From Escherichia coli (GTDB taxonomy: Bacteria > Pseudomonadota > Gammaproteobacteria > Enterobacterales > Enterobacteriaceae), in assembly GCF_030013595.1 (NCBI RefSeq), contig NZ_CP122768.1: 64,000 nucleotides of DNA; one strand, written 5' to 3'. Each line of letters starts with the position of its first letter. Position 1 is the stretch's first letter. Positions 19,839-58,679 of this stretch are shown here, one piece after another. The notes under the pieces were generated by a model. That model ran no database searches. It was not told the DNA's origin and saw only the letters and a list, made by a program, of their open reading frames with translations. The position numbers were made by a program, and so were the translations under genes.

Positions 19839-20393
19839 TCAAAGTGGAGGCTCTGGTAGCGGCATCCAGTGTGACGGCTCACATACCACCTCAACACCGT
19901 TCATGTAAAAGAATTGAAATAACCCTTTACCTTTGTGAAACCCTACCATCTGCTCTTTTGTGTCTGAACAATAAACCAAAACATCTTCTTCGTTTGGCAT
20001 CCACTCACTACAGCTTATCCAACCATCTGGAATTACCGGAGAGTTGCCCGACATCTCATTCAACTTGTAAGTCTGGCTTACAGGTTTGGCTTCCAGTTCT
20101 GCAATGCGCTTACCTCCATCCGCGATTACTCCCTCGTAATATTCACGCTGCTCGTTGAGTTTTGATTTTGCTTCCTCAAGCTCAACTCTCAGCTTCCCTA
20201 CCGTTAGCGCAATATCCTCGTTCTCCTGGTCACGGCGTTTGATGTATTGCTGGTTTCTTTCCCGTTCATCCAGCAGTTCCAGCACAATCGATGGTGTTAC
20301 CAATTCATGGAAAAGGTCTGCGTCAAATCCCCAGTCGTCATGCATTGCCTGCTCTGCCGCTTCACGCAGTGCCTGAGAGTTAATTTCGCTCAC
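19839..20393 (-). CDS. Prophage early protein, DUF551-like C-terminal domain
   Basis: 184 aa; C-terminal ...PDGWISCSEWMP...HWMPLPEPP resembles the DUF551 family common in lambdoid prophages (recalled). Confidence 0.45.
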   Translation of the reverse strand: MSEINSQALREAAEQAMHDDWGFDADLFHELVTPSIVLELLDERERNQQYIKRRDQENEDIALTVGKLRVELEEAKSKLNEQREYYEGVIADGGKRIAELEAKPVSQTYKLNEMSGNSPVIPDGWISCSEWMPNEEDVLVYCSDTKEQMVGFHKGKGLFQFFYMNGVEVVCEPSHWMPLPEPPL

Positions 20394-20611
20394 TTCGAAC
20401 CTCTCTGTTTACTGATAAGTTCCAGATCCTCCTGGCAACTTGCACAAGTCCGACAACCCTGAACGGCCAAGCGTCTTCGTTCATCTATCGGATCGCCACA
20501 CTCACAACAATGAGTGGCAGATATAGCCTGGTGGTTCAGGCGGCGCATTTTTATTGCTGTGTTGCGCTGTAATTCTTCAATTTCTGATGCTGAATCAATG
20601 ATGTCTGCCAT
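20390..20611 (-). CDS. TraR/DksA-family C4 zinc-finger protein
   Basis: 73 aa with CCECGDPI...CRTCASCQ four-Cys motif. Confidence 0.55.
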   Translation of the reverse strand: MADIIDSASEIEELQRNTAIKMRRLNHQAISATHCCECGDPIDERRRLAVQGCRTCASCQEDLELISKQRGSK

Positions 20612-20709
20612 CTTTCATTAATCCCTGAATTGTTGGTTAATACGCTTGAGGGTGAATGCGAATAATAAAAAAGGAGCCTGTAGCTCCATGATGATTTTGT
20701 TTTTCATGC

Positions 20710-20991
20710 TCACCGTTCCTTAAAGACGCCGTTTAACATGCCGATCGCCAGGCTTAAATGAGTCGGTGTGAATCCCATCAGCGTTACCGTTTCGCGGTGC
20801 TTCTTCAGTACGCTACGGCAAATGTCATCGACGTTTTTATCCGGAAACTGCTGTCTGGCTTTTTTGATTTCATAATTAGCCTGACGGGCAATACTGCGAA
20901 GGGCGTTTTCTTGCTGAGGTGTCATTGAACAAGTCCCATGTCGGCAAGCATAAGCACACAGAATATGAAGCCCGCTGCCAGAAAAATGCAT
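20710..20991 (-). CDS. Hypothetical early protein (start uncertain)
   Basis: ORF in the pL operon, co-oriented with its neighbours. Confidence 0.3.
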   Translation of the reverse strand: MHFSGSGLHILCAYACRHGTCSMTPQQENALRSIARQANYEIKKARQQFPDKNVDDICRSVLKKHRETVTLMGFTPTHLSLAIGMLNGVFKER

Positions 20992-21001
20992 TCAGTGGTT
21001 G

Positions 21002-21193
21002 TCATACCTGGTCTCTCTCATCTGCTTCTGCTTTCGCCACCATCATTTCCAGCTTTTGTGAAAGGGATGTGGCTAACGTATGAAATTCTTCGTCTGTTTC
21101 TACTGGTATTGGCACAAACCTGACTCCAATTTGAGCGAGGCTATGTGCCATCTCGATACTCGTTCTTAACTCAACGGGAGATGCTTTGTGCAT
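21002..21193 (-). CDS. Hypothetical early protein (63 aa), upstream of exo
   Basis: ORF co-oriented in the pL operon; no function assigned. Confidence 0.35.
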   Translation of the reverse strand: MHKASPVELRTSIEMAHSLAQIGVRFVPIPVETDEEFHTLATSLSQKLEMMVAKAEADERDQV

Positions 21194-21344
21194 ACAGCCC
21201 CCCGTTTATTATTTATCTCCTCAGCCAGCCGCTGGGCTTTCAGTGGATTTTGGATAACAGAAAGGCCGGGAAATACCCAGCCTCGCTTTGTAACGGAGTA
21301 GACGAAAGTGATCGCGCCTACCCGGATATTATCGTGAGGATGCG

Positions 21345-22025
21345 TCATCGCCATTGCTCCCCAAATACAAAACCAATTTCAGCCAGTGCCTCGTCCATTT
21401 TTTCGATGAACTCCGGCACCATCTCGTCAAAACTCGCCATGTACTTTTCATCCCGCTCAACCACGACATAATGCAGTCCTTCACGCTTCATACGCGGGTC
21501 ATAGTTGGCAAAGTACCAGGCATCTTTTCGCGTCACCCACATGCTGTACTGCACCTGGGCCATGTAAGCCGACTTTATGGCCTCGAAACCACCGAGCCGG
21601 AACTTCATGAAATCCCGGGAGGTAAACGGGCATTTCAGCTCAAGGCCATTGCCGTCACTGCATAAACCATCGGGAGAGCAGGCGGTGCGCATACTTTCGT
21701 CGCGATAGATGATCGGGGATTCAGTAACATTCACGCCGGAAGTGAATTCAAACAGGGTTCTGGCGTCGTTCTCGTACTGTTTTCCCCAGGCCAGCGCCTT
21801 AGCATTAACTTCCGGAGCCACACCGGTGCAAACCTCAGCCAGCAGGGTGTGGAAGTAGGACATTTTCATGTCAGGCCACTTCTTTCCTGAGCGGGGCTTT
21901 GCTATCACGTTGTGAACTTCTGAAGCGGTGATGACGCCGAGCCGTAATTTGTGCCACGCATCATCCCCCTGTTCGACAGCTCTCACGTCGATCCCGGTAC
22001 GCTGCAGGATAATGTCCGGTGTCAT
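21345..22025 (-). CDS. exo: Lambda-type exonuclease (Red-alpha)
   Basis: 226-aa [43 protein letters not shown]... essentially identical in character to lambda Exo. Confidence 0.9.
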
Positions 22026-22807
22026 GCAGCCACCTTCTGTTCAGAGGCTTTCTGTTTCAGGAATCCAAGAGCTTTCACTGCTTCGGCCTGTGTCAGTTCT
22101 GACGATGCGCGAATGTCGCGGCGAAATATCTGGGAACAGAGCGGCAATAAGTCGTCATCCCATGTTTTATCCAGGGCGATCAGCAGAGTGTTAATCTCCT
22201 GCATGGTTTCATCGTTAACCGGAGTGATGTCGCGTTCCGGCTGGCGTTCTGCAGTGTGTGCAGTATTTTCGACAATGCGCTCGGCTTCATCCTTGTCATA
22301 GATACCAGCAAATCCGAAGGCCAGACGGGCACACTGAATCATGGCTTTATGCCGTAACATCCGTTTGGGATGCGACTGCCACGCCCCCGTGATTTCTCTG
22401 CCTTCGCGAGTTTTGAATGGTTCGCGGCGGCATTCATCCATCCATTCGGTAACGCAGATCGGATGATTACGGTCCTTGCGGTAAATCCGGCATGTACAGG
22501 ATTCATTGTCCTGCTCAAAGTCCATGCCATCAAACTGCTGGTTTTCATTGATGATGCGGGACCAGCCATCAACGCCCACCACCGGAACGATGCCGTTCTG
22601 CTTATCAGGGAAGGCGTAAATTTCTTTCGTCCACGGATTAAGGCCGTACTGGTTGGCGACGATCAACAATGCGATGAACTGCGCATCGCTGGCATCACCT
22701 TTAAATGCCGTCTGGCGAAGAGTGGTGATCAGTTCCTGTGGGTCGACAGAATCCATGCCGACACGTTCAGCCAGCTTCCCTGCCAGCGTTGCGAGTGCTG
22801 TACTCAT
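22022..22807 (-). CDS. bet: Lambda-type recombinase Bet (Red-beta single-strand annealing protein)
   Basis: 261-aa [40 protein letters not shown]...; overlaps exo start. Confidence 0.9.
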
Positions 22808-22812
22808 CCGTT

Positions 22813-23109
22813 TTATACCTCTGAATCAATATCAACCTGGTGGTGAGCAATGGTTTCAACCATGTACCGGATGTGTTCTGCCATGCGCTCCTGAAACTCA
22901 ACATCGTCATCAAACGCACGGGTAATGGCTTTTTTGCTGGCCCCGTGGCGTTGCAAATGATCGATGCATAGCGATTCAAACAGGTGCTGGGGCAGGCCTT
23001 TTTCCATGTCGTCTGCCAGTTCTGCCTCTTTCTCTTCACGAGCGATCTGCTGGTAGTGACGCGCCCAGCTCTGAGCCTCAAGACGATCCTGAATGTAATA
23101 AGCGTTCAT
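22813..23109 (-). CDS. gam: Gam, RecBCD inhibitor (short form; the long form may start upstream)
   Basis: 98-aa [41 protein letters not shown]... Confidence 0.85.
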
Positions 23110-23184
23110 GGCTGAACTCCTGAAAATGGCTGTGAAAATAGCGCCCGCGAAATGCCAGGCTGATTAGGAAAACAGGAAAGGGGG

Positions 23185-23328
23185 TTAGTGAATGCTTTTG
23201 CTTGATCTCAGTTTCAGCATTAATATCCATTTTTTATAAGCGTCGACGGCTTCACGAAACATCTTTTCATCGCCAATAAAAGTGGCGATAGTGAATTTAG
23301 TCTGGATAGCCATAAGTGTTTGATCCAT
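23185..23328 (-). CDS. kil: Kil (host-killing FtsZ inhibitor), 47 aa
   Basis: Internal start of the 89-aa ORF gives [36 protein letters not shown]...SSKSIH, matching lambda Kil. Confidence 0.7.
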
Positions 23329-23461
23329 TTTTTGGGACTCCTGGCTGATTAAGTATGTCGATAAGGCGTTTCCATCCGTCACGTAATTTACGGGTGATTC
23401 GTTCAAGTAAAGATTCGGAAGGGCAGCCAGCAACAGGCCACCCTGCAATGGCATATTGCAT
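23297..23461 (-). CDS. cIII: cIII (FtsH inhibitor), 54 aa; below the ORF-track length cutoff
   Basis: Manual translation of the minus strand: [54 protein letters not shown]. Confidence 0.7.
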   Translation of the reverse strand: MQYAIAGWPVAGCPSESLLERITRKLRDGWKRLIDILNQPGVPKNGSNTYGYPD

Positions 23462-23533
23462 GGTGTGCTCCTTATTTATACATAACGAAAAACGCCTCGA
23501 GTGAAGCGTTATTGGTATGCGGTAAAGCCGCGC

Positions 23534-23845
23534 TTAGGCGGCTGATGTTTCTTCTTTCAGGCTTTCGAGATATTTACGTGGGTCGTCGTAACATTGGCAT
23601 TCGCTGTACCAATCCACCCAGCGATCAGTAAGCCCCACCTCTGATAAATCTTCATCGGTAAGGCTCTCATCCCACATCTCAAGGCCGTTAGCATTGCAGT
23701 AATCAGGCTTGATGTTGTTGTCATACTGAAAGGCGTCATAATCAGCCAGTGCGTCCATCAGGCGAACACCCTCTTCAACACTTGCCACTTCTACAATGAA
23801 CGGCTTCATAGGTACTTGCGGGATATGCCAGACACGTAATTTCAT
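23534..23845 (-). CDS. Hypothetical early protein (position of lambda ea10)
   Basis: 103-aa acidic Cys-containing ORF co-oriented in the pL operon. Confidence 0.45.
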   Translation of the reverse strand: MKLRVWHIPQVPMKPFIVEVASVEEGVRLMDALADYDAFQYDNNIKPDYCNANGLEMWDESLTDEDLSEVGLTDRWVDWYSECQCYDDPRKYLESLKEETSAA

Positions 23846-29778: not shown

Positions 29779-30237
29779 TTGGGGGAGAGGGAAGTCATGA
29801 AAAAACTAACCTTTGAAATTCGATCTCCAGCACATCAGCAAAACGCTATTCACGCAGTACAGCAAATCCTTCCAGACCCAACCAAACCAATCGTAGTAAC
29901 CATTCAGGAGCGCAACCGCAGCTTAGACCAAAATCGGAAGCTTTGGGCTTGCCTTGGTGACGTTTCGCGTCAGGTTGAATGGCATGGTCGCTGGCTGGAT
30001 GCAGAAAGCTGGAAGTGTGTGTTTACCGCAGCATTAAAGCAGCAGGATGTTGTTCCTAACCTTGCCGGGAATGGCTTTGTGGTAATAGGCCAGTCAACCA
30101 GCAGGATGCGTGTAAACGAATTTGCGGAGCTATTAGAGCTTATACAGGCATTCGGTACAGAGCGTGGCGTTAAGTGGTCAGACGAAGCGAGACTGGCTCT
30201 GGAGTGGAAAGCGAGATGGGGAGATCGGGCTGCATGA
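29779..30237 (+). CDS. ninB: NinB (Orf-family recombination mediator)
   Basis: 152-aa ORF MKKLTFEIRSPAHQQNAIHAVQQILPDPTKPIVVTIQERNRSLDQNRKLWA... Confidence 0.85.
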   Translation: MGEREVMKKLTFEIRSPAHQQNAIHAVQQILPDPTKPIVVTIQERNRSLDQNRKLWACLGDVSRQVEWHGRWLDAESWKCVFTAALKQQDVVPNLAGNGFVVIGQSTSRMRVNEFAELLELIQAFGTERGVKWSDEARLALEWKARWGDRAA

Positions 30238-30761
30238 CTATCAAATCAAATACGCCAGCACACGACAAGGACTGCTGGCAAACGCCGCTTTGGCTTTTTG
30301 ATGCACTGGATATTGAGTTTGGATTCTGGCTGGATTCGGCAGCGAGCGACAAAAATGCTCTGTGTGCTCACTGGCTAACTGAGGCCGACGACGCGCTCAA
30401 TTCTGAGTGGGTAAGCCACGGTGCAATCTGGAATAACCCACCGTACAGCAATATCAGGCCGTGGGTGGAAAAAGCCGCTGAGCAGTGCATACAACAGCGA
30501 CAGACGGTAGTGATGCTTGTGCCAGAGGATATGTCAGTCGGATGGTTCAGCAAGGCTCTGGAGAGTGTCGACGAAGTTCGCATTATCACTGATGGACGGA
30601 TTAATTTTATCGAACCATCGACGGGGCTGGAGAAGAAGGGAAACAGCAAAGGCTCCATGCTGCTGATTTGGCGACCGTTCATCAGTCCTCGACGGATGTT
30701 TACTACCGTATCCAAAGCGGCATTGATAGCGATCGGGCAGGGCGTCAGGAGGGCGGCATGA
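30234..30761 (+). CDS. Phage DNA N6-adenine methyltransferase (Dam-like, NPPY motif), orphan
   Basis: 176 aa from internal ATG overlapping the ninB stop (ATGA); contains NPPY catalytic motif and an SAM-binding-like segment. Confidence 0.7.
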
Positions 30762-30934
30762 GGCGACAGCGACGAAGTTTCACCGACATCATCTGCGAAA
30801 ACTGCAAATACCTTCCAACGAAACGCTCCAGAAATAAACGCAAGCCAATCCCAAAAGAATCTGACGTAAAAACCTTCAACTACACGGCTCACCTGTGGGA
30901 TATCCGGTGGCTAAGACATCGTGCGAGGAAATGA
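30758..30934 (+). CDS. ninE: NinE-like protein
   Basis: [58 protein letters not shown]; start overlaps the Dam stop. Confidence 0.55.
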
Positions 30935-30984
30935 CAATGCTTTTAATTCAACCTGGATTTGGCCTTAGCATCAAAAAAGGACAC

Positions 30985-31338
30985 ATGTTTGGCGAGAAAG
31001 AGTCACAACGAAAAATGGTGTCTATCCGGTTGCCATTTATCAGTATTTATTGGCTAAACAGGGAGGCAACAAATTATTGGTATACATGCGCCAGAGCAGC
31101 ATTTAACGACCCTGACTGGTTTGTGAAAAACCACCATGCGGTTCGTCAGGCAAAGAGAAAGGCCAATACGACATACATGAAGGCGTATCGAAAAGCATGG
31201 AAAGAACACCGCGATCGATACCAGCAAGACATGGAAAAGCTTGAATCAGAAAACATGGAATTAAGACGAAAGCTTGGTGAAGCAAAACGAGACATTGATG
31301 CTTACAAGCGACTTTTTAATGGTGAAAGCCATGCTTAG
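30985..31338 (+). CDS. Hypothetical nin-region protein (start uncertain)
   Basis: ORF 30895..31338; basic coiled-coil C-terminus; overlaps ninE in another frame, so the start is unclear. Confidence 0.3.
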   Translation: MFGEKESQRKMVSIRLPFISIYWLNREATNYWYTCARAAFNDPDWFVKNHHAVRQAKRKANTTYMKAYRKAWKEHRDRYQQDMEKLESENMELRRKLGEAKRDIDAYKRLFNGESHA

Positions 31339-31507
31339 CCCATCCCAAACCCTTCAATACCAGAAAGAAAGCGTCGAGCGAGCTTTAACGTGCGCTAACT
31401 GCGGTCAGAAGCTGCATGTGCTTGAAGTTCATGTGTGTGAGCACTGCTGCGCAGAACTGATGAGCGATCCGAATAGCTCAATGTACGAGGAAGAAGACGA
31501 TGAATGA
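31331..31507 (+). CDS. ninF: NinF-like zinc-binding protein
   Basis: MLSPSQTLQYQKESVERALTCANCGQKLHVLEVHVCEHCCAELMSDPNSSMYEEEDDE. Confidence 0.6.
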   Translation: MLSPSQTLQYQKESVERALTCANCGQKLHVLEVHVCEHCCAELMSDPNSSMYEEEDDE

Positions 31508-32222
31508 GTTAATAAATGGCAATGCCATCAAAATGACAAGCATTGAAATCGCTGAGTTGGTGGGTAAGCGTCATGACAATGTGAAACGTACCATCGAAAC
31601 GCTGGCTAAAAATGGTGTTATCCGGCTTCCTCAAATTGAGGTTTCCGAAAGAATCAATAACTTAGGGTTCAATGTTCAGTACGAGCATTACGTCTTCGAA
31701 GGCGAACAAGGTAAGCGAGATAGTATTGTTGTTGTTGCCCAGTTGTCGCCAGAGTTCACCGCTCGCCTTGTTGACCGCTGGCGAGAGCTTGAAGAAACTG
31801 CGGCTAATATCCCCAAAACGCTACCAGAAGCGTTGCGCCTTGCTGCTGATCTTGCTGAGCAGAAAATGCAACTGGAAAACCAGCTCGCAATTGCCGCACC
31901 TAAAGTTGAGTTTGCCGATCGTGTTGGCGAGGCCAGCGGAATTTTGATTGGAAACTTTGCAAAGGTTGTTGGAATTGGTCAAAACAAACTGTTTGCGTGG
32001 ATGCGCGATCACAAAATCCTTATTGCTTCAGGTTCCCGGCGCAATGTGCCAATGCAGGAATATATGGATCGCGGCTATTTCACAGTGAAAGAAACAGCGG
32101 TCAATACAAATCACGGAATACAGATATCGTTCACCACAAAAATCACCGGGCGTGGCCAACAGTGGCTGACCAGAAAGCTGCTCGATAACGGAATGCTGAA
32201 AGTAACAGGGGAGGCTGCTTAA
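31500..32222 (+). CDS. Rha-family / KilA-C domain phage regulatory protein (antirepressor-like)
   Basis: 240 aa; N-terminal MNELINGNAIKMTSIEIAELVGKRHDNVKRTIETLAKNGVI (Rha-like) and a KilA-C-like C-terminal half. Confidence 0.6.
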   Translation: MNELINGNAIKMTSIEIAELVGKRHDNVKRTIETLAKNGVIRLPQIEVSERINNLGFNVQYEHYVFEGEQGKRDSIVVVAQLSPEFTARLVDRWRELEETAANIPKTLPEALRLAADLAEQKMQLENQLAIAAPKVEFADRVGEASGILIGNFAKVVGIGQNKLFAWMRDHKILIASGSRRNVPMQEYMDRGYFTVKETAVNTNHGIQISFTTKITGRGQQWLTRKLLDNGMLKVTGEAA

Positions 32223-32512
32223 TGGCCAATCTACGCAAAGAAGCACGCGGCAGAGAATGTCAGGTACGTATTTACGGCGTATGCAATGGCAATCCTGAAA
32301 CTACAGTTCTGGCACATTACCGGATGGCTGGAATTTGCGGAACGGGAATGAAGCCTGACGACCTGATCGGCGCATGGGCTTGTAGCGCGTGTCACGATGA
32401 AATCGACCGACGCACCCATAATCTCGACAACAAAGACGCCAGACTTTACCACCTCGAAGGTGTGATCAGGACGCAGGCGATACTGCTGAAGGAGGGGAAG
32501 ATTAAGCCATGA
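32222..32512 (+). CDS. DUF1364-like nin-region protein (Cys/His-rich, putative nuclease-associated)
   Basis: 96-aa ORF with CxxC...CxxCH pattern, typically found beside rusA. Confidence 0.45.
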   Translation: MANLRKEARGRECQVRIYGVCNGNPETTVLAHYRMAGICGTGMKPDDLIGAWACSACHDEIDRRTHNLDNKDARLYHLEGVIRTQAILLKEGKIKP

Positions 32513-32871
32513 ACGAATATCAGTTTGTGCTTCCTTACCCGCCGTCGGTGAATACCTACTGGCGAAGACGGGGAAGCCAATACTACATCAGCGATAAAGG
32601 CCAGAAATACCGAAAAGACGTTCAGCAAATCATTCGCCAACTCAAGTTAGACATTTTCACCAAATCACGACTCCGTATCAAAGTCATCGCAGACGTTCCA
32701 GACTCCCGCCGCCGCGACCTCGACAACATCCTGAAAGGTTTACTCGACTCCCTTATCCACGCCGGATTTGCGGAAGACGACGAGCAATTCGATGACATTC
32801 GCGTAATTCGTGGTGTGAAAGTACCAGGCGGAAGGCTTGGAATAAAAATCACCGAACTGGAGAACGTATGA
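32509..32871 (+). CDS. rusA: RusA Holliday-junction resolvase
   Basis: 120-aa ORF MNEYQFVLPYPPSVNTYWRRRG... with catalytic Asp cluster. Confidence 0.8.
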   Translation: MNEYQFVLPYPPSVNTYWRRRGSQYYISDKGQKYRKDVQQIIRQLKLDIFTKSRLRIKVIADVPDSRRRDLDNILKGLLDSLIHAGFAEDDEQFDDIRVIRGVKVPGGRLGIKITELENV

Positions 32872-33056
32872 ACGCCACAATTCAAACGATACCAGAACTT
32901 CTTATCCAGACACGAGGCAATCAGACCGAAGTGGCGAGGAGGCTTTCCTGTGCAAGAGGAACAGTGCTCAAGTACAACAGAGACAGCAAAGGCGAGCGTC
33001 ACGCAATAGTTAACGGCGTCCTGATGGTCAAACAGGGCAAGAGGGGAAGACGATGA
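32868..33056 (+). CDS. ninH: NinH-like small HTH protein
   Basis: 62 aa ...GNQTEVARRLSCARGTVLKY...; immediately precedes Q. Confidence 0.55.
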   Translation: MNATIQTIPELLIQTRGNQTEVARRLSCARGTVLKYNRDSKGERHAIVNGVLMVKQGKRGRR

Positions 33057-33676
33057 GACTCGAAAGCGTAGCTAAATTTCATTCTCCAAAAAGCCCGATG
33101 ATGAGCGACTCACCACGGGCTACAGCTTCTGACTCTCTTTCCGGTACTGATGTGATGGCTGCTATGGGGATGGCGCAATCACAAGCCGGATTCGGTATGG
33201 CTGCATTCTGCGGTAAGCATGAACTCAGCCAGAACGACAAACAAAAGGCTATCAACTATCTGATGCAATTTGCACACAAGGTATCGGGGAAATACTGTGG
33301 TGTGGCAAAGCTTGAAGGAAATACTAAGGCAAAGGTACTGCAAGTGCTCGCAACATTCGCTTATGCGGATTATTGCCGTAGTGCCGCGACGCCGGGCGCA
33401 AGATGCAGAGATTGCCACGGTACAGGCCGTGCGGTTGATATAGCCAAAACAGAGCAGTGGGGGAGAGTTGTTGAGAAAGAGTGCGGAAGATGCAAAGGTG
33501 TCGGCTATTCAAGAATGCCAGCAAGCGCCGCATATCGCGCTGTAACGATGCTAATCCCAAACCTTACTCAACCCACCTGGTCACGCACTGTTAAGCCGCT
33601 GTATGACGCTCTGGTGGTGCAATGCCACAAAGAAGAGTCAATCGCAGACAACATTTTGAATGCGGTCACACGTTAG
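33053..33676 (+). CDS. Q: Late-gene antiterminator Q (lambda-type)
   Basis: 207-aa ORF MRLESVAKFHSPKSPMMSDSPRATASDSLSGTDVMAAMGMAQSQAGFG...; followed by PR' and tR'. Confidence 0.9.
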   Translation: MRLESVAKFHSPKSPMMSDSPRATASDSLSGTDVMAAMGMAQSQAGFGMAAFCGKHELSQNDKQKAINYLMQFAHKVSGKYCGVAKLEGNTKAKVLQVLATFAYADYCRSAATPGARCRDCHGTGRAVDIAKTEQWGRVVEKECGRCKGVGYSRMPASAAYRAVTMLIPNLTQPTWSRTVKPLYDALVVQCHKEESIADNILNAVTR

Positions 33677-33718
33677 CAGCATGATTGCCACGGATGGCAA
33701 CATATTAACGGCATGATA

Positions 33719-33747
33719 TTGACTTTTTGAATAAAGTTGGGTAAATT
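33719..33747 (+). promoter_or_regulatory. Late promoter PR' (TTGACT-N17-TAAATT) with downstream qut region
   Basis: -35/-10 hexamers with 17-bp spacing immediately downstream of Q, as in lambda. Confidence 0.65.
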
Positions 33748-33888
33748 TGACCCAACGATGGGTTAATTCGCTCGTTGTGGTAGTGAGATGAAAAGAGGCG
33801 GCGCTTACTACCGATTCCGCCTAGTTGGTCACTTCGACGTATCGTCTGGAACTCCAACCATAGCAGGCTGAGAGGTCTGCAAAATGCA

Positions 33889-33948
33889 ATCCCGAAACAG
33901 TTCGCAGGTAATAGTTAGAGCCTGCACAACGGTTTCGGGATTTTTTAT
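33889..33948 (+). terminator. tR' terminator (end of 6S-RNA-like late leader)
   Basis: Inverted repeat aatcccgaaac...gtttcgggatt followed by TTTTTT, about 190 nt downstream of PR'. Confidence 0.7.
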
Positions 33949-33950
33949 TT

Positions 33951-34025
33951 GGGTCAGTCGTATAAAGGTCATTACGGAAGGCTGTTAACCTTCTTATCGT
34001 GGTTCGAGTCCACGCTGTCCCGCCA
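33951..34025 (+). tRNA. Candidate phage-encoded tRNA (anticodon GTT, Asn-like); atypical D-arm and one acceptor-stem mismatch
   Basis: Manual fold: acceptor GGGTCAG/CTGTCCC, anticodon stem GAAGG/CCTTC with loop CTGTTAA, T-arm CGTGG-TTCGAGT-CCACG, 3' GCCA. Confidence 0.45.
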
Positions 34026-34030
34026 AATAT

Positions 34031-34106
34031 GCTGGTTTAGCTCCAATGGTAGAGCGGTCGCCTTGTAAGCGAATGGGTAGCGGTTCAAGTCCGTTAACCA
34101 GCACCA
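34031..34106 (+). tRNA. Candidate phage-encoded tRNA (anticodon TGT, Thr-like)
   Basis: Manual fold: acceptor GCTGGTT/AACCAGC, D-arm GCTC-CAATGGTA-GAGC, anticodon loop CTTGTAA, T-arm AGCGG-TTCAAGT-CCGTT, 3' ACCA. Confidence 0.5.
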
Positions 34107-34348
34107 TAACTGAGCCGTAGCCACTGGCTATCCTGAATTCATGAGTGATAGTTACGCTGCGGCCTTCTACACATGATCTTCGTGAAAGCGGGTGACAGGA
34201 GGTCGCGCTAACAACCTCCTGCCGTTTTGCCCGTGCATATCGGTCACGAACAAATCTGATTACTAAACACAGTAGCCTGGATTTGTTCTATCAGTAATCG
34301 ACCTTATTCCTAATTAAATAGAGCAAATCCCCTTATTGGGGGTAAGAC

Positions 34349-34672
34349 ATGAAGATGCCAGAAAAACATGACCTGTTAGCCGCCATTCTCGCGGCAAAGG
34401 AACAAGGCATCGGGGCAATCCTTGCGTTTGCAATGGCGTACCTTCGCGGCAGATATAATGGCGGTGCGTTTACAAAAACAGTAATCGACGCAACGATGTG
34501 CGCCATTATCGCCTGGTTCATTCGTGACCTTCTCGACTTCGCCGGACTAAGTAGCAATCTCGCTTATATAACGAGCGTGTTTATCGGCTACATCGGTACT
34601 GACTCGATTGGTTCGCTTATCAAACGCTTCGCTGCTAAAAAAGCCGGAGTAGAAGATGGTGGAAATCAATAA
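34349..34672 (+). CDS. S: Holin S (class I, lambda-type)
   Basis: 107-aa [44 protein letters not shown]... with TM segments and dual start MKM. Confidence 0.9.
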
Positions 34673-35132
34673 TCAACGTAAGGCGTTCCTCGATATGCTG
34701 GCGTGGTCAGAGGGAACTGATAACGGACGGCAGAAAACCAGAAATCATGGTTATGACGTCATTGTAGGCGGAGAGCTATTCACTGATTACTCCGATCATC
34801 CTTGCAAACTTGTCACGCTAAACCCCAAACTCAAATCAACAGCAGCCGGACGTTACCAGCTTCTTTCCCGTTGGTGGGATGCCTATCGTAAGCAGCTTGG
34901 CTTGAAAGATTTCTCTCCGAAAAGCCAGGACGCAGTTGCACTGCAGCAGATTAAAGAGCGTGGCGCTTTACCTATGATTGATCGCGGTGATATCCGTCAG
35001 GCAATCGACCGTTGCAGCAATATCTGGGCTTCACTGCCGGGCGCTGGTTATGGTCAGTTCGAGCATAAGGCTGACAGCCTGATTGCAAAATTCAAAGAAG
35101 CAGGCGGAGCGGTCAGAGAGATTGAGGTATGA
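34656..35132 (+). CDS. R: Endolysin R (lytic transglycosylase, lambda-type)
   Basis: 158-aa [42 protein letters not shown]... Confidence 0.9.
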
Positions 35133-35596
35133 GCAGAGTAACCGCGATTATCTCCGCTCTGGTTATTTGCATCATCGTCTGCCTGTCATGGGCTGTTAAT
35201 CATTACCGTGATAACGCCATCGCCTACAAAGAACAGCGAGATAAAAAAGTCAGTGAGCTGAAGCAGGCGACCGCCACCATTACTGACATGCAGCAGCGCC
35301 AGCGTTCTGCTGATGCGCTCGATGCTAAATACACGAAGGAGTTAGCTGATGCGAAAGCTGAAAATGATGCTCTTCGGCGCAAGCTTGATAATGGTGGTCG
35401 GGTGTTCGTCAAAGGAAAATGCCCTGTGCCATCCTCAGCCGAAACCTCCGGCGCCTCCGGCATGGGCAATGATGCCACCGTCGAACTCTCTCCAGTTGCT
35501 GGACGAAACGTTCTCGGTGTCCGGGACGGAATTATCCGCGACCAAACAGCACTGAGAACGCTTCAGGAATACATCAGGACGCAATGCCTTCGATGA
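35129..35596 (+). CDS. Rz: Spanin inner-membrane subunit Rz
   Basis: 155 aa with N-terminal TM segment and coiled coil; overlaps R stop. Confidence 0.85.
35349..35555 (+). CDS. Rz1: Spanin outer-membrane lipoprotein Rz1 (embedded in Rz, +1 frame)
   Basis: [21 protein letters not shown]... lipobox-like signal and proline-rich body, nested within Rz. Confidence 0.6.
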
Positions 35597-35941: not shown

Positions 35942-36484
35942 ATGAATTATCCAACTATCGTTAACGGCATCGATTTCCGAGAACTGATTTTTGTGGCAAA
36001 CAACGATCCGGTTACAGATTCTTTTATGGTGGCAAAAGCATTTGGAAAGCTGCCGAAGAACGTGGTTCGTGACATTGAGCGAACCATAGAAGCTTGCCCT
36101 CCTGAGTTTGATACAAAGCTCAACTTTGAGCTTTGCTATAAAAACAATGAGTTACAGAATGGTAAGCCGCAAAAATTCTACCGTCTACGCAAGGATGGGT
36201 TGATGCTTTTGGTTATGTCCTACACCAAAAAAGAAGCAATGCGTATCAAAATTGCTTACATCAACGCATTTAACTGGATGTACGCCATGCTTCAGGTTGG
36301 TCATCGTCAATTTGAAGAAGAGAGAAATGCCGTAATGCTGGAGTACATGAAAGAGAAGGATGTTGCCAGCATGTCAGGTCGCCTGCTAAATCGCTGGGGC
36401 AAAATTAAGAAGCCACAGTTGCTGGCTAGAATTGAACGCCTTGAACAGCACGGGCAAACCGTAATCCCCGGACTCATCAATTAA
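35942..36484 (+). CDS. Rha-family phage regulatory protein (second copy of the fold in this prophage)
   Basis: 180 aa MNYPTIVNGIDFRELIFVANNDPVTDSFMVAKAFGKLPKNVVRDIERTIE...; between the lysis cassette and terminase, as in P22. Confidence 0.6.
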   Translation: MNYPTIVNGIDFRELIFVANNDPVTDSFMVAKAFGKLPKNVVRDIERTIEACPPEFDTKLNFELCYKNNELQNGKPQKFYRLRKDGLMLLVMSYTKKEAMRIKIAYINAFNWMYAMLQVGHRQFEEERNAVMLEYMKEKDVASMSGRLLNRWGKIKKPQLLARIERLEQHGQTVIPGLIN

Positions 36485-36691
36485 CGGCAGTACCGCGAAA
36501 CAACCCAAGCCAGTAAGTGGGGAAATAACTGAAAGATGAACCTCCAGCCTTATGGCAAAAAAGATTCTTTGTGGTGGCGGACTGATGGAAAGACATCGGA
36601 TAGAATAAAACAGTGGCTAGGGTAGCTCCCGAAAAGCGGAATCGTCACCGCCAGCCACTGAATCTATGACGAACAACTAGACGAGGTTGAT

Positions 36692-36934
36692 ATGAGTGAA
36701 ATTGATAAAATAATAAATGGTACATGTAACTTTCAATCAATGCCGCCAGGTAGTTATGTAAAACAATGTAGTGAAATAGTTAATGGTCAGCTTGTAATGT
36801 CAAATGCAGGACGTGGAGTTTCTACGGATGAAAAAAAATCAATAAATGAAGCCCTATTAAGCATCAATGTTTTTGACTTGTTTCGCCCATCTTGGGTTAT
36901 TTTGCAAAATAGTAGTCAATTCCCACATTATTGA
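36692..36934 (+). CDS. AT-rich moron ORF (80 aa) of unknown function with its own terminator
   Basis: Low-GC ORF preceded by GAGGT SD; hairpin + T-run terminator 36953..36977. Confidence 0.4.
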   Translation: MSEIDKIINGTCNFQSMPPGSYVKQCSEIVNGQLVMSNAGRGVSTDEKKSINEALLSINVFDLFRPSWVILQNSSQFPHY

Positions 36935-41548: not shown

Positions 41549-42460
41549 ATGGACCAAACCACCGACATTCAGGCTTCTGAAGAATTAACCCTGCCCGGCA
41601 ATCATGCAGCGGCATCTGCTGATGGCTTAGTTGTCGATAATGCCAACGACAACGCAGGTCAGGAAGAAGGCTTTGAGATTGTCCTGAAAGACGATGAGAA
41701 ACCAAAACAAGACCCGGCAACTAATGCTGAATTTGCCCGTCGCCGCATCGAACGCAAACGCCAGCGTGAGCTTGAGCAGCAGATGGAAGCGGTTAAGCGT
41801 GGAGAGTTGCCGGAGCACCTGCGGGTGAACCCTGAGTTACCAAAACAACCAGACCCTAACGATTATCTTTCCGAAGATGCACTGGCTAAGTACGACTATG
41901 ACCAGAGCCGCGCACTGGCTGCCTTCCAGCAGGCAAACAGTGAATGGCAGATCAAGGCTATGGACGCACGAAGCCAGGCTGTCGCCGAGCAGGGCCGCAA
42001 AACTCAGGAGTTCACCCAGCAATCAGCGCAATACGTCGAGGCCGCCCGTAAGCACTACGATGCAGCGGAAAAGCTTAATATCCCTGACTATCAGGAGAAA
42101 GAGGATGCATTCATGCAACTGGTGCCGCCAGCAGTCGGTGCCGACATCATGCGCCTCTTCCCGGAGAAATCCGCCGCTCTCATGTATCACCTTGGTGCTA
42201 ATCCTGAGAAAACACGCCAGTTGCTGGCGATGGACGGGCAATCCGCGCTGATTGAACTCACTCGACTGTCAGAACGTTTAACTCTCAAGCCTCGAGCAAA
42301 GCCTGTTTCAGAAGCCCCGTTACCTGATGAACCCATTCAGGGACACGCTGTTGCTGCAAATATCTCTGCGATTGAAAAGCAGATGGAAGCGGCAGCAAAC
42401 AAAGGGGATGTAGAGACGTACCGCAAGCTCAAGGCGCAACTGAATAAAGGAATTCGATAA
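41549..42460 (+). CDS. Scaffolding protein (P22 gp8-like)
   Basis: 303-aa acidic alpha-helical protein between portal and coat. Confidence 0.75.
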
Positions 42461-43755
42461 TGGCATTAAATGAAGGTCAACTGGTCACGTATGCTCTGGA
42501 TGAAATCATCGAAACCGTCCAGAACCTGACGCCAATGGCGTCCAAAGTGACAAAATACACCCCTCCGGCAGAATCCATGCAGCGTTCAAGCAACACCGTG
42601 TGGATGCCTGTTGAGCAGGAAGCGCCAACCCAGACTGGCTGGGATTTAACTGGCAACGCAACCGGGATTCTGGAACTCTCCGTGAAATGCAACATGGGCG
42701 ATCCGGATAACGATTTCTTCGAGCTTCGTGCAGATGACCTGCGTGATGAGCGTTCTTACCGTCGCCGCATCCAGGCATCCGCCAAAAAACTGGCGAATAA
42801 CATTGAGTCAGCGATTGCCAAACAGGCAACTGAAATGGGCTCGCTTGTTGTTCACGATACCCGCGCAATTGGTCCATCTACTGGCCTTTCTGGCTGGGAT
42901 TTTGTGTCTGATGCAGAGCGCCTGATGTTCTCCCGTGAGCTAAACCGCGATATGGGCATCAGTTACTTCCTGAACCCTGACGATTACCGCAAAGCAGGCC
43001 GCAACCTGGTAGATGGTGACATCTTCGGGCGCGTTACTGAAGACGCGTATCACAACGGTACTATTCAGCGTCAGATTGCTGGCTTTGATGAAATTCTTCG
43101 CTCACCGAAACTTCCCGCAGTTACCAAGTCAACCGCTACTGGTGTAACTGTTTCTGGTGCGCAGAAGTTTAAGCCGCAGGCATACACCCTTGATACCGAT
43201 GGTAACAAAGAGAACGTCGATAACCGTGTTGCAACGGTGACCGTATCCTCCACCACCGGATTTAAGCGCGGCGACAAAATCAGCTTCACTGGTGTGAAAT
43301 TCCTGTCTCAGATGGCGAAGAACGTGCTGACTGATGATGCGACTTTCTCAATCACCCGTGTGATCGATGGTACTCACATCGAAATCACGCCGAAGCCGAT
43401 TGCGCTGGATGACGCGTCACTGACAAAAGAAGAGAAGGCTTACGCTAACGTAAACACCTCTCTTGCTGATACCACTCCGGTAAACGTTCTGAACGTGGCA
43501 ACAACCACCGCTAACGTGTTCTGGGCTGATGACTCAATCCGTCTGCTGTCTCAGCCGATCCCGGTAACCCATGAACTGTTTGCTGGCATGAAAACGTCTT
43601 CCTTCAGCATTCCTGGTATTGGTGTTAACGGCATCTTCGCAACGCAGGGGGATATCAACACTCTGTCTGGCAAGTGCCGTATTGCTGTGTGGTATTCAGC
43701 ATGTGCTGTACGACCAGAGGCAATTGGTGTTGGTCTGCCTAACCAGACCGCGTGA
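42460..43755 (+). CDS. Major coat protein (P22 gp5-like, HK97 fold)
   Basis: 431-aa [36 protein letters not shown]...; followed by a strong terminator. Confidence 0.85.
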
Positions 43756-43799: not shown

Positions 43800-44054
43800 A
43801 TGACACACATGATCTTTCGTCATGGAGACATGAAGAAGTGGAAAGGCGTTGGATACGACTTTGAAATCGTGAAAGCCGAAGAGCTTCAGGAATATCTGGA
43901 TGCTGGCTGGTTTGCACATCCCGATGACCTTCTGAAGGATGTTGCAGAGTCAGAGCCAGAGCTAGAACCAGAGTCAGAGCCAGAAGAAAAACAGCGTAAA
44001 AAGCCTGGTCGAAAACCTAAGGCGGTAGCAGATGAACCTGACAACGAAGGGTGA
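43800..44054 (+). CDS. Hypothetical acidic protein between coat and gp4
   Basis: ATG 43800 preceded by GGAGA SD; C-terminus [24 protein letters not shown]. Confidence 0.4.
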
Positions 44055-44532
44055 TTTAGTTCTTGCGGCATTACGTAAGCTCGGTGTGGCATCAAATGCC
44101 ACGTTAACCGATGTCGAACCGCAGTCTATGGAAGATGGCGTCAACGACCTTGAAATGATGATGGCTGAATGGCTTGGCGGTGATGCGTCACCTGGGATCA
44201 ACGTTGGCTACATTTTCGCTGATGCAGATGTCGCTCCAGATCCGGGCGATGAGCACGGCTTATCAAATAACGCTATAAATGCCGTCATTTTCAACCTTGC
44301 CTGCCGCATTGCTCCAGATTATGCGCTGGAAGCGCCAGCAAAACTTATAACCACTGCCAGATACGGGAAAGAGCGACTCGTCAAACCGTCTGCAATGGAC
44401 AGAGCAAAAGCCGCTAAATGTAAGTCCGGTTATCCAAACCGTATGCCTGTTGGTAGCGGTAACCAGTTGGCGAAGTGGAATGGTTGGAATTACTTCCACC
44501 GAAAGGAACCTTGCGATAACGGGAGCGAATAA
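44032..44532 (+). CDS. Head-completion / tail-adaptor protein (P22 gp4-like)
   Basis: 166 aa, first ORF after the coat module in P22-like order. Confidence 0.65.
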
Positions 44533-45951
44533 ATGCCGATTCAGCAACTTCCGCTTATGAAAGGTGTCGGCAAAGACTTTCGAAACGCCGACTATATCGA
44601 CTATCTGCCAGTGAATATGCTGGCTACACCCAAAGAAATCCTGAACAGCAGCGGATATCTTCGCTCATTCCCTGGCATTGCCAAACGCTCTGATGTGAAC
44701 GGTGTATCTCGCGGCGTCGAGTACAACATGGCGCAGAATGCTGTTTATCGTGTGTGTGGTGGCAAGCTGTACAAAGGAGAAAGTGAAGTCGGTGACGTCG
44801 CCGGAAGTGGTCGCGTATCAATGGCGCATGGTCGTACATCTCAGGCGATAGGTGTTAATGGTCAACTGGTCGAGTATCGCTATGATGGCACGATTAAAAC
44901 CGTCTCAAACTGGCCTACAGATAGTGGATTCACTCAGTATGAGCTAGGTTCGGTTCGTGACATTACGCGCTTACGTGGGCGTTATGCGTGGTCAAAAGAC
45001 GGCACTGATTCATGGTTTATCACTGATCTTGAAGACGAATCGCATCCTGACCGCTACAGCGCACAATATCGTGCCGAGTCTCAGCCGGACGGCATCATCG
45101 GCATCGGCACATGGAGAGACTTCATCGTCTGCTTTGGTTCATCGACGATTGAATATTTCTCCCTGACTGGTGCAACCACCGTTGGTGCTGCTTTGTATGT
45201 CGCACAGCCATCACTGATGGTGCAGAAAGGCATTGCCGGGACTTACTGCAAAACGCCGTTTGCTGACTCGTATGCGTTCATCAGCAATCCGGCAACAGGT
45301 GCGCCGTCTGTATACATCATCGGCTCCGGTCAGGTATCACCAATCGCCAGCGCGAGCATTGAGAAAATACTACGCTCCTACACTGCTGATGAACTGGCTG
45401 AAGGCGTGATGGAATCGCTGCGGTTTGATGCGCATGAGTTGCTGATTATCCATCTTCCGCGCCATGTTCTCGTATACGACGCATCTTCAAGCGCCAATGG
45501 TCCGCAATGGTGTGTATTGAAAACAGGCCTGTATGACGATGTGTACCGCGCTATCGACTTCATTTACGAAGGCAATCAGATAACGTGCGGCGATAAGCTG
45601 GAATCGGTGATCGGGAAATTGCAGTTCGATATCAGCAGCCAGTACGACAAGCAACAGGAACACCTGCTGTTTACTCCGTTGTTCAAAGCGGATAACGCCA
45701 GATGCTTTGATCTGGAGGTGGAATCATCGACTGGTGTTGCGCAGTATGCTGACCGCCTGTTCCTCTCTGCAACCACTGACGGCATCAATTACGGTCGTGA
45801 GCAGATGATTGAGCAGAATGAACCGTTCGTTTACGACAAACGCGTTTTGTGGAAGCGAGTTGGGCGCATCAGGAAAAATGTCGGCTTCAAATTGCGCGTT
45901 ATCACTAAGTCACCTGTCACTCTGTCAGGCTGCCAGATAAGGATTGAGTAA
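44533..45951 (+). CDS. Tail hub protein (P22 gp10-like)
   Basis: 472 aa; position between gp4-like and the needle. Confidence 0.65.
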
Positions 45952-46799
45952 TGGCTGATTCGAATCTCAATGTGCCGGTAATCATTCAGGCTACACGGCT
46001 CGACACATCAGTCCTTCCACGCAATATCTTCTCGCAGTCGTATCTGCTTTACGTTATCGCACAGGGTACTGATGTTGGTAACGTGGCGAACAAAGCCAAC
46101 GAGGCCGGACAGGGTGCTTATGACGCACAAGTCAGGAACGATGAGCAGGATGTGATTCTCGCTGACCATGAGCAGCGAATTTCTGCTGCGGAAGCAACGC
46201 TTGTTAATCATGAGGAGCGAATCAGCCAGGCAGAATCAACTCTTCAGGAACATGAAACGCGAATCGCTCAGAATGAAAGCGATATTGCGTCGCTTGATAC
46301 CAGAGTTCAGTCGCTGGAGTCGCAGGTTTCAGACCATGAATCGCGCATCGATTCTCTGGAGTATGCCACTACTCGCAAAAAGTCAGAGGTTGTTTACTCT
46401 GGCGTATCTGTAACCATTCCGACAGCGCCGACCAACCTTGTTAGCCTGCTGAAAACGCTCACGCCGTCATCAGGCTCGTTGGCACCATTCTTCGACACCG
46501 TTAACAACAAGATGATTGTGTTCAACGAGAACAAAACCTTGTTCTTCAAGCTGTCGATCGTCGGGACGTGGCCCAGCGGAACAGCCAACAGGTCAATGCA
46601 GCTAACCTTTTCCGGCTCTGTTCCTGACACACTGGTAAGCAGTCGCAACTCGGCTACAACAACCGATAACATCCTGTTAGCTACGTTCTTCAGCGTGGAT
46701 AAAGACGGCTTTCTTGCCACAAATGGCAGCACGTTAACCATCCAGTCAAATGGTGCGGCGTTTACTGCCACAACTATCAAAATCATTGCGGAGCAGTGA
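45951..46799 (+). CDS. Tail needle protein (P22 gp26-like) with extended C-terminal knob
   Basis: N-terminus [43 protein letters not shown] resembles P22 gp26; heptad-repeat coiled coil; longer C-terminus. Confidence 0.75.
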
Positions 46800-57348: not shown

Positions 57349-58539
57349 TTATTCATTTTCATCAAGCCAGTCCGCCCACCACTGCATCATTTCTCTGCGC
57401 TTGTCTAGATACTGAGCATGGTTGTAAATCCCACGCACAGATCCGCCGTTGGCATGTGCCAGTTGCACTTCAATAGCGTCAGCAGGCCATTCGTGCTCGT
57501 TCATAATTGTGCTGAATTCATGCCTGAATCCGTGACCGCTTTCCAGACCCTCATAGCCGATTTGTTTGATCACAAGCAATACCGCGTTCTCGCAGATTGG
57601 CTTCTTCTTATCGTTGCGCCCTGCAAAAACAAACTCTGATACTGGTTTGGTGATGGAGCTTAACGTAGTGAGAAGTTCAACCACCTGGTCTGACATCGGG
57701 ACCACATGAATTTTGCGTCCCTTCATCACGCTGGCGTCGATGGTGATAATCCTGTTTTCAAAATCGACGTTCTTCCATTGCATGGAGCGAAGCTCTTTCG
57801 TTCTTAGGGCTGTATAACGTAAAACTTTTGTCGCAATAAGCGATACGATACTTCCTGAAAATGTTGCCAGTGCTTTGTTGAATGCCGGGATCTGGTCTGC
57901 AGGAAGAAACGGGAAGTTCTTCTTGCGGTATCCTTTCATGGCGTCTGCAAGGTCAGGTGCCGGGTTATATTTAGCCCTTCCGGTGACAATAGCGTAACGG
58001 AAAACCTCTCCGCATCTTCTGCGGGCTTTGTTGGCTCGCTCCATTGCACCGCGATCTTCAAACCTGCGGATTACTTCAAGAAGTTGCATCGGCTCAATAT
58101 CCTGAATTTCAAGACCGCCGATGATGGGTAAAATGTCGTCATCAAACATTTTGGCAAGTTCAGTCGCATACCCTACAGACCAGACTTGCTTCTTGTGCTC
58201 GTACCATTCCTTGTAAATGGCGCTAAAGGAATTGTTGTTAGACGAAGCCTTTTTCGCTTTTACCGGATCGATGCCAACCGAGATGTCTTTCCTCGCAGTC
58301 CATGCTTTATCCCTTGCCTCTTGCAAAGTCATAAGCGGATATTTTCCGACGGTCAGGATTTTCTCCTTACCGTCAATCTTGTAGCGAAGCTGCCATACCT
58401 TTTTCCCGGATACAGGGACATAAAGGTACAATCCATTACCATCGAGAAGGCGGTATGGTTTTTCTTTCGGCTTTGCTGCTTCAATCTGCTTAACGGTGAG
58501 CATGGGTAAAAATCCGGTGGGTAAAATTATTTTATCCAC
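57349..58539 (-). CDS. intS: Tyrosine integrase, P4-type (IntS-like); start possibly at internal Met 58503
   Basis: ...MLTVKQIEAAKPKEKPYRLLDGNGLYLYV... with C-terminal catalytic region (HGFRH ... Y); directly adjacent to argW. Confidence 0.9.
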   Translation of the reverse strand: MDKIILPTGFLPMLTVKQIEAAKPKEKPYRLLDGNGLYLYVPVSGKKVWQLRYKIDGKEKILTVGKYPLMTLQEARDKAWTARKDISVGIDPVKAKKASSNNNSFSAIYKEWYEHKKQVWSVGYATELAKMFDDDILPIIGGLEIQDIEPMQLLEVIRRFEDRGAMERANKARRRCGEVFRYAIVTGRAKYNPAPDLADAMKGYRKKNFPFLPADQIPAFNKALATFSGSIVSLIATKVLRYTALRTKELRSMQWKNVDFENRIITIDASVMKGRKIHVVPMSDQVVELLTTLSSITKPVSEFVFAGRNDKKKPICENAVLLVIKQIGYEGLESGHGFRHEFSTIMNEHEWPADAIEVQLAHANGGSVRGIYNHAQYLDKRREMMQWWADWLDENE

Positions 58540-58664: not shown

Positions 58665-58679
58665 TGGTGTCCCCTGCAG
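58665..58679. repeat. Prophage attR core: 15-bp direct repeat (tggtgtcccctgcag) within the argW 3' end
   Basis: Exact copy of 19143..19157. Confidence 0.7.

Follow-up and report, generated by a model that had tools for sequence, protein, structure and literature searches.

Between the late terminator tR' and the lysis genes of a mosaic prophage in Escherichia coli (RefSeq assembly GCF_030013595.1, contig NZ_CP122768.1; the whole 64,000-nucleotide stretch analysed is called the window) lie two adjacent sequences resembling transfer RNA (tRNA) genes, which raises the question of whether they are genuine, whether they still function and what they offer to the phage. The two genes are real and probably functional, and they belong to a phage lineage rather than being copies of host genes. 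On balance, their main value is probably that they are insensitive to the Toprim tRNases of the OLD family, and so can stand in for the host Thr(UGU) and Asn(GUU) tRNAs that these nucleases destroy. The cassette itself is already known, being well documented in phage 21/Sf6-type prophages together with a published mechanism for its tRNA-Thr. Since the role of the tRNA-Thr against P2 Old is published and many records annotate the genes, the locus carries little weight as a discovery, and its use lies in the reading of this prophage.

Gene calls and selection on the cloverleaves

ARAGORN placed a tRNA-Asn(GTT) gene at 33951-34025 and a tRNA-Thr(TGT) gene at 34031-34106, both on the + strand, with the same coordinates and anticodons as those proposed in an initial annotation made from the sequence alone. 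Both matched the Rfam family RF00005 over its full length (1-71), at 55.3 bits for tRNA-Asn and 61.2 bits for tRNA-Thr, far above the gathering score of 29 (E-values of 3e-9 and 8e-11, respectively, for the whole 64-kb window against 4227 families). Furthermore, both genes are annotated by RefSeq/PGAP in near-identical E. coli prophages without a pseudogene flag. ARAGORN and Rfam accept the two sequences, whose rejection or scoring as pseudogenes the initial annotation had named as part of the outcome that would speak against it. The cassette comprises the following elements:

33951..34025, + strand: tRNA-Asn, anticodon GUU, discriminator G73, encoded CCA, conserved U4-U69 and U13-U22 (ARAGORN, Rfam, covariation)
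34026..34030, + strand: spacer AATAT of 5 nt between the tRNAs, AACAT in Sf6 and phage 21 (sequence)
34031..34106, + strand: tRNA-Thr, anticodon UGU, G1-C72, C2-G71, A73, encoded CCA (ARAGORN, Rfam, covariation)

The structural features first read from the letters (a weak D-arm and a U-U acceptor mismatch in tRNA-Asn, together with the T-arms and 3' NCCA ends) were all confirmed in the sequence. The acceptor stem of tRNA-Asn carries a U4-U69 mismatch and its D-stem consists of 3 bp plus the U13-U22 non-pair. T-arms are canonical in both tRNAs, CCA is encoded in both genes, and the discriminators are G73 in tRNA-Asn and A73 in tRNA-Thr. The anticodon stem of tRNA-Thr is shortened by a conserved G27-A43 non-pair, with U28-A42 where the host has C28-G42. 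As read from the sequence, the set of tertiary nucleotides (U8, A14, G18-G19, U33, purine 37, T54-T55-C56 and A58) is complete in tRNA-Asn, and in tRNA-Thr it is complete but for C14 replacing A14. The identity elements of the E. coli asparaginyl-tRNA synthetase are G34, U35, U36 and G73, and those of the threonyl-tRNA synthetase are G1-C72, C2-G71, G35 and U36; each cassette tRNA contains the complete set for its enzyme. Folding of the single sequences was unremarkable (z = -1.7 and -1.5) and the minimum-energy fold of tRNA-Thr is not a cloverleaf; such folding is usually uninformative for tRNAs.

Covariation was examined in 18 distinct Asn and 19 distinct Thr variants from 120 viral contigs, which had been gathered by the Asn D-arm signature, so that the Asn D-arm is fixed by the search pattern. 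Six pairs of tRNA-Asn changed on both sides (including 5-68, 6-67, 7-66, 28-42 and 29-41), as did eight of tRNA-Thr (3-70, 5-68, 6-67, 28-42, 29-41, 31-39, 49-65 and 50-64); for both tRNAs, none of 500 shuffles did as well, and controls with slid partners yielded 0-2 pairs. The irregular positions are themselves retained, U4-U69 of Asn being unpaired in 16 of the 18 variant types and G27-A43 of Thr in 18 of the 19. In the same 65 loci, conservation amounts to 98.75% for the cassette vs 95.5% for the downstream flank.

Host tRNA nucleases and the probable role of the cassette

Published work has identified the host counterparts of both tRNAs as nuclease targets. The cleavage kinetics of P2-OLD, compared for thrU and host Asn(GUU), Lys(UUU) and Val(UAC), are fastest for thrU (PMC12445682), and AriB of the PARIS system targets Lys(UUU) (primary), Thr(UGU) (major) and Asn(GUU) (minor), with U39 and position 41 among its cleavage determinants (PMC12409363). 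Both cassette tRNAs have the anticodon of a nuclease-cleaved host tRNA, and in both the nuclease determinants are altered with the anticodon loop kept: the anticodon loops (7/7 positions) and discriminators equal those of host asnT and thrU, and four of the five anticodon-stem pairs differ in each. Compared with the host, tRNA-Thr has UCG/CGA for CUG(28-30)/CAG(40-42), G for U39, G for A41 and A for U16, and its stem is shortened by G27-A43. Compared with asnT, tRNA-Asn has AAG/CUU for CGG(28-30)/CCG(40-42), C for U39, U for C41 and A for U16. The paired CNG motifs are thereby lost in the cassette Thr, as are both CNG motifs and U39 in the cassette Asn; U39 is lost in all seven phage Thr(UGU) tRNAs and in five of the six phage Asn(GUU) tRNAs compared.

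For the threonine tRNA, the consequence of such changes has been measured. The tRNA-Thr21 of phage 21 withstands purified P2-OLD and shields cells from P2-OLD plus Gam (NAR 2025, PMC12445682), its resistance being attributed to the shortened anticodon stem and to changes such as C28U/G42A, and it decodes ACA in vivo in rescue assays (PMC12445682). Phage Thr(UGU) tRNAs rescue cells from P2 Old by replacing host Thr(UGU), and host thrU gives no protection against P2-OLD (PMC12445682). Likewise, HK97, HK542 and Bas34 plate again on OLD+ cells when the Thr(UGU) of HK446 is supplied (bioRxiv 10.64898/2026.07.10.737580). The phage 21 and HK446 alleles acted from plasmids in these assays. The tRNA-Thr of the window has the stem features of tRNA-Thr21 exactly (G27-A43 and U28-A42) and differs at position 26 only. 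The spare role has therefore been demonstrated on an allele one base different (A26, with G26 in the window) and by analogy would extend to the tRNA-Thr studied here; for tRNA-Asn, the same role is predicted from its altered stem.

The timing of such a supply depends on the surrounding late control region, which is laid out as follows:

33053..33676, + strand: late antiterminator gene Q, lambda-type, 207 aa (open reading frame inside the block matching lambda)
33719..33747, + strand: late promoter pR' (TTGACT, 17-nt spacer, TAAATT; promoter scan and column-for-column alignment with lambda pR')
33888..33950, + strand: tR' terminator, ending a short 6S-type leader with a long hairpin and, after it, the tract UUUUUUAUUU (folding, lambda tR' homology)
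33949..34107, + strand: 159-bp cassette replacing lambda 44782-44944 (BLAST junctions, alignment)
34108..34348, + strand: leader common to lambda and Sf6, and in its first ~90 nt also to phage 21 (BLAST, alignment)
34349..35596, + strand: lysis genes S (34349-34672), R (34656-35132) and Rz (35129-35596) (open reading frames, lambda S/R/Rz homology)

The record of HK446 annotates the site equivalent to this pR' as a lambda-like PR'. The tR' hairpin folds at -26.9 kcal/mol (z = -5.57, none of 200 shuffles being as good); its long stem-loop made a simple terminator scan miss it, and direct folding confirmed it. S, R and Rz are the first protein genes of the late operon, and the tRNAs lie 243 nt upstream of the lambda-type holin gene.

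In the proposed mechanism, pR' would fire constitutively and RNA polymerase would halt at tR' unless modified by Q, the tRNAs forming the 5' end of the late transcript. They would be transcribed in quantity only once Q has been made, because they start 3 nt after tR'; since the U-tract ends 3 nt before tRNA-Asn, there is no room for a separate promoter. Q-dependent expression, which the initial annotation had proposed, is thus the only reading that the anatomy allows, and it would follow from position. Host RNase P and the 3'-processing enzymes would then excise the tRNAs with their encoded CCA, and charging with asparagine and threonine is predicted from the identity elements. The mature tRNAs would decode AAC/AAU and ACA/ACG during the mass synthesis of virion proteins, and would stand in for host Thr(UGU) and Asn(GUU) cut by OLD-family Toprim tRNases during abortive infection; under this reading, the extra supply for ACA would be a secondary benefit. 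A literature search for expression of the cassette in lysogens or upon induction turned up no published data.

Several points weigh against the spare role. Experimental resistance and rescue concern the A26 alleles (tRNA-Thr21 and HK446 Thr), with G26 in the window, and the published measurements were made on Thr, not on the cassette Asn. The changes at the nuclease determinants are partly to be expected by chance, as the cassette is ~40% diverged from the host tRNAs overall. It lacks tRNA-Lys(UUU), the primary target of AriB, so that it cannot by itself defeat PARIS of the B185 type. In one study, Thr(UGU) alone rescued neither lambda nor recB cells suffering OLD toxicity; there, HK446 escaped mainly via the protein inhibitor Oad2, and the authors doubted an anti-defence role for its tRNA (10.64898/2026.07.10.737580). 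A tblastn search of the window revealed no Oad2 homologue in this prophage. The phage L paper leaves undecided whether the tRNAs are cut out of late mRNA or have their own promoter. Finally, Q contains five ACA and six Asn codons, and N and O contain more, so that a strictly Q-dependent cassette would be useless if the host tRNA were gone before Q is made; the supply comes late unless read-through at tR' gives a basal level.

A tentative and somewhat doubtful extension of the spare role is that Asn(GUU) is no passenger: it would join Thr(UGU) in a conserved counter-defence module of two tRNAs, directed at P2 Old, PARIS AriB and related Toprim tRNases of the OLD family, for which the two host tRNAs are common substrates. 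The pairing would have been assembled or retained repeatedly, the lambdoid late leaders being one instance. Asn followed by Thr as neighbours recurs in the P1-like RCS47, in Cyrano and in N4. If this is true, the cassette Asn should resist Old and AriB, and its addition should remove the residual small-colony defect seen with Thr alone. Such a matched pair would extend published work rather than constitute a new kind of system. It could also show that the tRNA sets of temperate phages are minimal and target-matched, serving as anti-defence genes and not as codon-usage adaptations.

For the prophage itself, the presence of gam gives the spare role particular relevance. Gam is a known trigger of P2 Old, and because Gam is present and Oad2 absent, the cassette may be the only known protection of this prophage against classic P2-lambda interference; lambda itself is without protection from P2 Old at exactly this site. 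The exo-bet-gam-kil-cIII block (20091-23542, - strand) is 97.5% identical to lambda 30093-33544. Homologues of the HK446 trigger gp33 and of gp31, Erf and Abc2 of HK446 were, like Oad2, absent from the window (tblastn, E above 0.9), lambda exo-bet-gam standing in the prophage instead of the HK446-type genes.

Codon supply and other explanations

Among the rival explanations, the best placed is that these are functional, late-expressed tRNAs whose one benefit is more Thr(UGU) and Asn(GUU) for virion proteins that depart from the codon usage of the host, nuclease resistance being incidental; as a complete account, this is considered unlikely. Codon usage was compared with a baseline of 42 annotated core K-12 genes. 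ACA occurs at 15.1 per 1000 codons in the prophage vs 5.4 in the core (2.8-fold, p = 3e-15), and is served in the host by the single-copy gene thrU. Asn codons stand at 48.3 vs 37.6 per 1000 (1.3-fold), rising to 51.8 (1.4-fold) in the late genes, and the coat gene (42460-43755) uses 22 AAC and 2 AAT. A baseline from the host flanks of the window was rejected, its genes being atypical (ACA makes up 26% of their Thr codons); against these flanks, ACA in the prophage shows no difference. Published reports also favour a codon role, the SfI paper describing an ACA bias and the phage L paper noting that 24 of 25 capsid Asn codons are AAC. In addition, other variants of the cassette add an Arg(UCU) tRNA, which serves a rare codon, and a non-initiator CAU tRNA of unconfirmed identity.

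Against a role confined to codon supply, several codons are more enriched than ACA and none of them is served by the cassette (AGA 7.7-fold, AGG 6.6, ATA 3.4, TCA 3.2 and CGA 3.1). The Asn enrichment is small, the host has four asn genes and the SfI authors saw no Asn bias. Moreover, over-expressed host thrU rescues neither OLD-challenged cells nor phages where the phage allele does, which indicates that sequence and not dose matters, and supply alone gives no reason for keeping the G27-A43 non-pair in nearly all variant types. The supplementation of host tRNAs put forward in the initial annotation thus fits ACA only moderately and Asn barely. Codon supply explains the Thr gene in part and the Asn gene poorly, which was also the view of the SfI authors.

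Next, the tRNA folds might act mainly as entry sites for RNase P and RNase E that sever the 6S-type leader and define the 5' end of the lysis-gene message as well as its stability; decoding would be secondary. The position is suggestive, as the tRNAs open a very long operon at its extreme 5' end, with the terminator before them and the leader of S after them, and from what is known of tRNA maturation, their processing there must sever the leader. Lambda, however, manages without tRNAs at that site; the anticodon loops, discriminators and identity elements are strictly kept, which a mere processing signal would not need; and the Thr tRNA decodes ACA in vivo in the published rescue assays. A processing element is therefore highly improbable as the main role.

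That the genes are decaying relics, that is, pseudogenes inherited through recombination without current function, had been left open by the initial annotation and is now close to refuted. In its favour stand the unusual non-pairs (U4-U69 and U13-U22 in Asn, G27-A43 in Thr) and C14 of Thr, the unremarkable single-sequence folding with its non-cloverleaf minimum for Thr, and the second tRNA of JLK-2012 and of phage L/ST64T, which ARAGORN no longer calls. On the other side, covariation backs both cloverleaves, the non-pairs are conserved rather than random, conservation is higher in the cassette than in its flank, and the 3' CCA and identity elements are intact; together these make the relic reading very unlikely. 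It is further contradicted by the lack of a PGAP pseudogene flag and by the published function in vivo of the near-identical Thr tRNAs of phage 21 and HK446.

The weakest explanation refers to the integration site, where two features are relevant:

58665-58739, - strand: argW, tRNA-Arg(CCU), intact, 63.4 bits over the full model (ARAGORN, Rfam)
57349-58503, - strand: open reading frame of 384 aa, probable integrase, adjoining argW (position)

Compensation for a host tRNA gene disrupted by integration, suggested for HK446 in the OLD preprint (10.64898/2026.07.10.737580), would suit a prophage lying at argW beside an integrase gene and the integration of HK446, SfI and P22 at thrW, but is rejected, as the junction argW is intact, the anticodons GUU and UGU match neither argW (CCU) nor thrW (CGU), and phages that integrate at different sites share this cassette.

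Locus, distribution and comparison with known systems

The cassette sits in an otherwise lambda-like stretch. Window 33043-33948 corresponds to lambda 43875-44781 at 97.4% identity and window 34108-35376 to lambda 44945-46213 at 95.4% (BLAST). The initial annotation had regarded the whole segment from tR' to S as replaced relative to lambda; the replacement is real, but it covers only lambda 44782-44944, and the next 241 bp, up to the start codon of S, are 95% identical to lambda. With 163 bp in lambda vs 159 bp in the window, essentially the two tRNAs alone have been swapped. The lambda filler is unrelated in sequence to the tRNA cassette and nearly equal to it in length. A permissive Rfam scan of lambda 44782-44944 (L001 983-1145) yielded no tRNA-like hit at E up to 10 and no other Rfam signal, and the idea that the filler is a decayed tRNA pair was rejected for want of a tRNA match in that scan. 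One conserved sequence, AACTGAGCCGTAGCC..., follows the slot in the window as it does in lambda, phage 21 and Sf6, and thereby points to a recombination boundary. The lambda-homologous leader between cassette and S also contains a G+C-rich hairpin, ACAGGAGGT ... ACCTCCTGC, followed by GTTTTG (34194-34230, + strand), which the simple terminator scan did not flag.

More widely, the window is a segment of the E. coli chromosome with a mosaic prophage beside the intact argW. It combines lambda-type exo-bet-gam-kil-cIII, O, P, Q, S and R with P22-like virion genes. The argW gene and the probable integrase frame mark one prophage end, and a torI-like excisionase would sit at the opposite end, beside dsdC, by analogy with strain HH97. 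Rfam also detected an int-alpA RNA motif at 36610-36672 (+ strand; 42.0 bits, gathering score 35.8, E = 2.6e-5), downstream of the lysis genes; a Rha-like open reading frame (35942-36484) and a small one (36692-36934) flank it.

The cassette is widespread. Of 5,426 complete E. coli genomes, 730 (~13%) have it in a prophage, and it is present in 70 phage records and a few phage-plasmid records. Over 161 nt, it is identical to that of SfI (100%) and nearly so to those of HK446 (99.4%) and phage 21 (98.8%), and the Sf6 cassette differs from the window by 2 nt. The tRNA-Asn is identical in HK446, JLK-2012 and phage L, and position 26 (G in the window, A in the others) is the single difference from the tRNA-Thr of HK446 and phage 21. 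The G26 allele is a minority, with 10 loci vs 55 for the commonest A26 sequence. Both tRNAs are annotated in the records of phage 21, Sf6, SfI, BTP1, Kapi1 and others; the cassette was described for Sf6 in 2004, and the pair is discussed in the genome papers of SfI, phage L and phage 21, which cite Guo, Kainz and Roberts (1991) as the source for the phage 21 tRNAs. Upstream, at least two kinds of Q/tR' module adjoin the cassette; the lambda-type junction occurs in only 10 of 116 viral loci and is known with the cassette in HK446, mEp506, Kapi1 and phiv205-1.

Of the 120 viral contigs, 90 have Asn-Thr; in the others, Asn stands by itself or is accompanied by Phe(GAA), Arg(UCU), Gly(UCC) or a non-initiator CAU tRNA. 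The 'Met(CAU)' tRNA of one such variant was considered as an initiator, and hence as an fMet target of Old, and rejected because of its G1-C72 pair. In five IMG/VR loci, the same Asn gene is followed by a second, unrelated Thr(UGU) lineage (GCCGGTCTAGTTCAGTGGCAGAAC...), which displays three fully compensated anticodon stems (GCAGC/GCTGC, GCAGA/TCTGC and ATTGC/GCAAT); such rapid turnover of the anticodon stem would fit selection by stem-cutting nucleases.

Altered Thr genes are also found. Phage JLK-2012 (L007 1584-1659) carries a chimeric Thr gene, cassette-type in its 5' part and host thrU-like in its 3' part, for which ARAGORN makes no call, and one IMG/VR Thr variant is identical to thrU in its last 59 nt. 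The latter looks like a product of gene conversion by host thrU, and such a chimera restores the Old-sensitive host anticodon stem. In Salmonella phage L/ST64T (L008 1584-1655), a gene annotated as tRNA-Leu(TAA) can be aligned to the cassette Thr along its acceptor, D and T arms, but its anticodon arm is rearranged and it receives no ARAGORN call; instead of a Leu tRNA, it may be a Thr gene that has decayed.

Among known systems, the closest are the cassettes of phage 21, Sf6, SfI, HK446, BTP1 and Kapi1, which have the same two genes in the same order, with a 5-nt spacer, in the slot between tR' and the lysis genes; the upstream Q/pR'/tR' module is lambda-type in the window, whereas phage 21 and Sf6 have the 21-type. 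The initial annotation had likened the position to that of the tRNAs of Stx phages, and rightly so, as 933W carries ileZ-argN-argO in this slot, between Q/pR'/terminators and the first late genes and ahead of stx2, with the same presumed Q read-through. The 933W tRNAs are other isoacceptors, for the rare codons AUA and AGA/AGG, and are unrelated in sequence to the cassette; furthermore, the 933W record has a putative dedicated promoter pT, and stx2AB after the tRNAs, whereas the tRNAs of the window abut tR' without room for a promoter.

Functionally, the cassette resembles the Lys/Thr/Asn tRNAs of T5 (acting against PARIS AriB) and the Thr(UGU) tRNAs of T4, T5 and Bas32 (against P2 Old), whose anticodons are likewise those of the nuclease targets. 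The nuclease-resistant tRNAs of T4, T5 and Bas32 share with it a host-identical anticodon loop, an altered anticodon stem and the loss of U39. The cassette tRNAs are only 65-80% identical to those of T5, lack tRNA-Lys, and form a pair of genes on the late promoter of a temperate phage, in contrast to the earlier-expressed arrays of 20-plus genes in virulent phages. The P1-like RCS47, N4 and Cyrano, phages with 2-4 tRNAs, also carry Asn(GUU) and then Thr(UGU) as neighbours, with Thr 81-85% identical to that of the window. Their pairs lie in other genomic contexts, without a Q-controlled late leader, and the P1-like Asn keeps the host-type A31-U39 pair, whereas the cassette Asn has C39.

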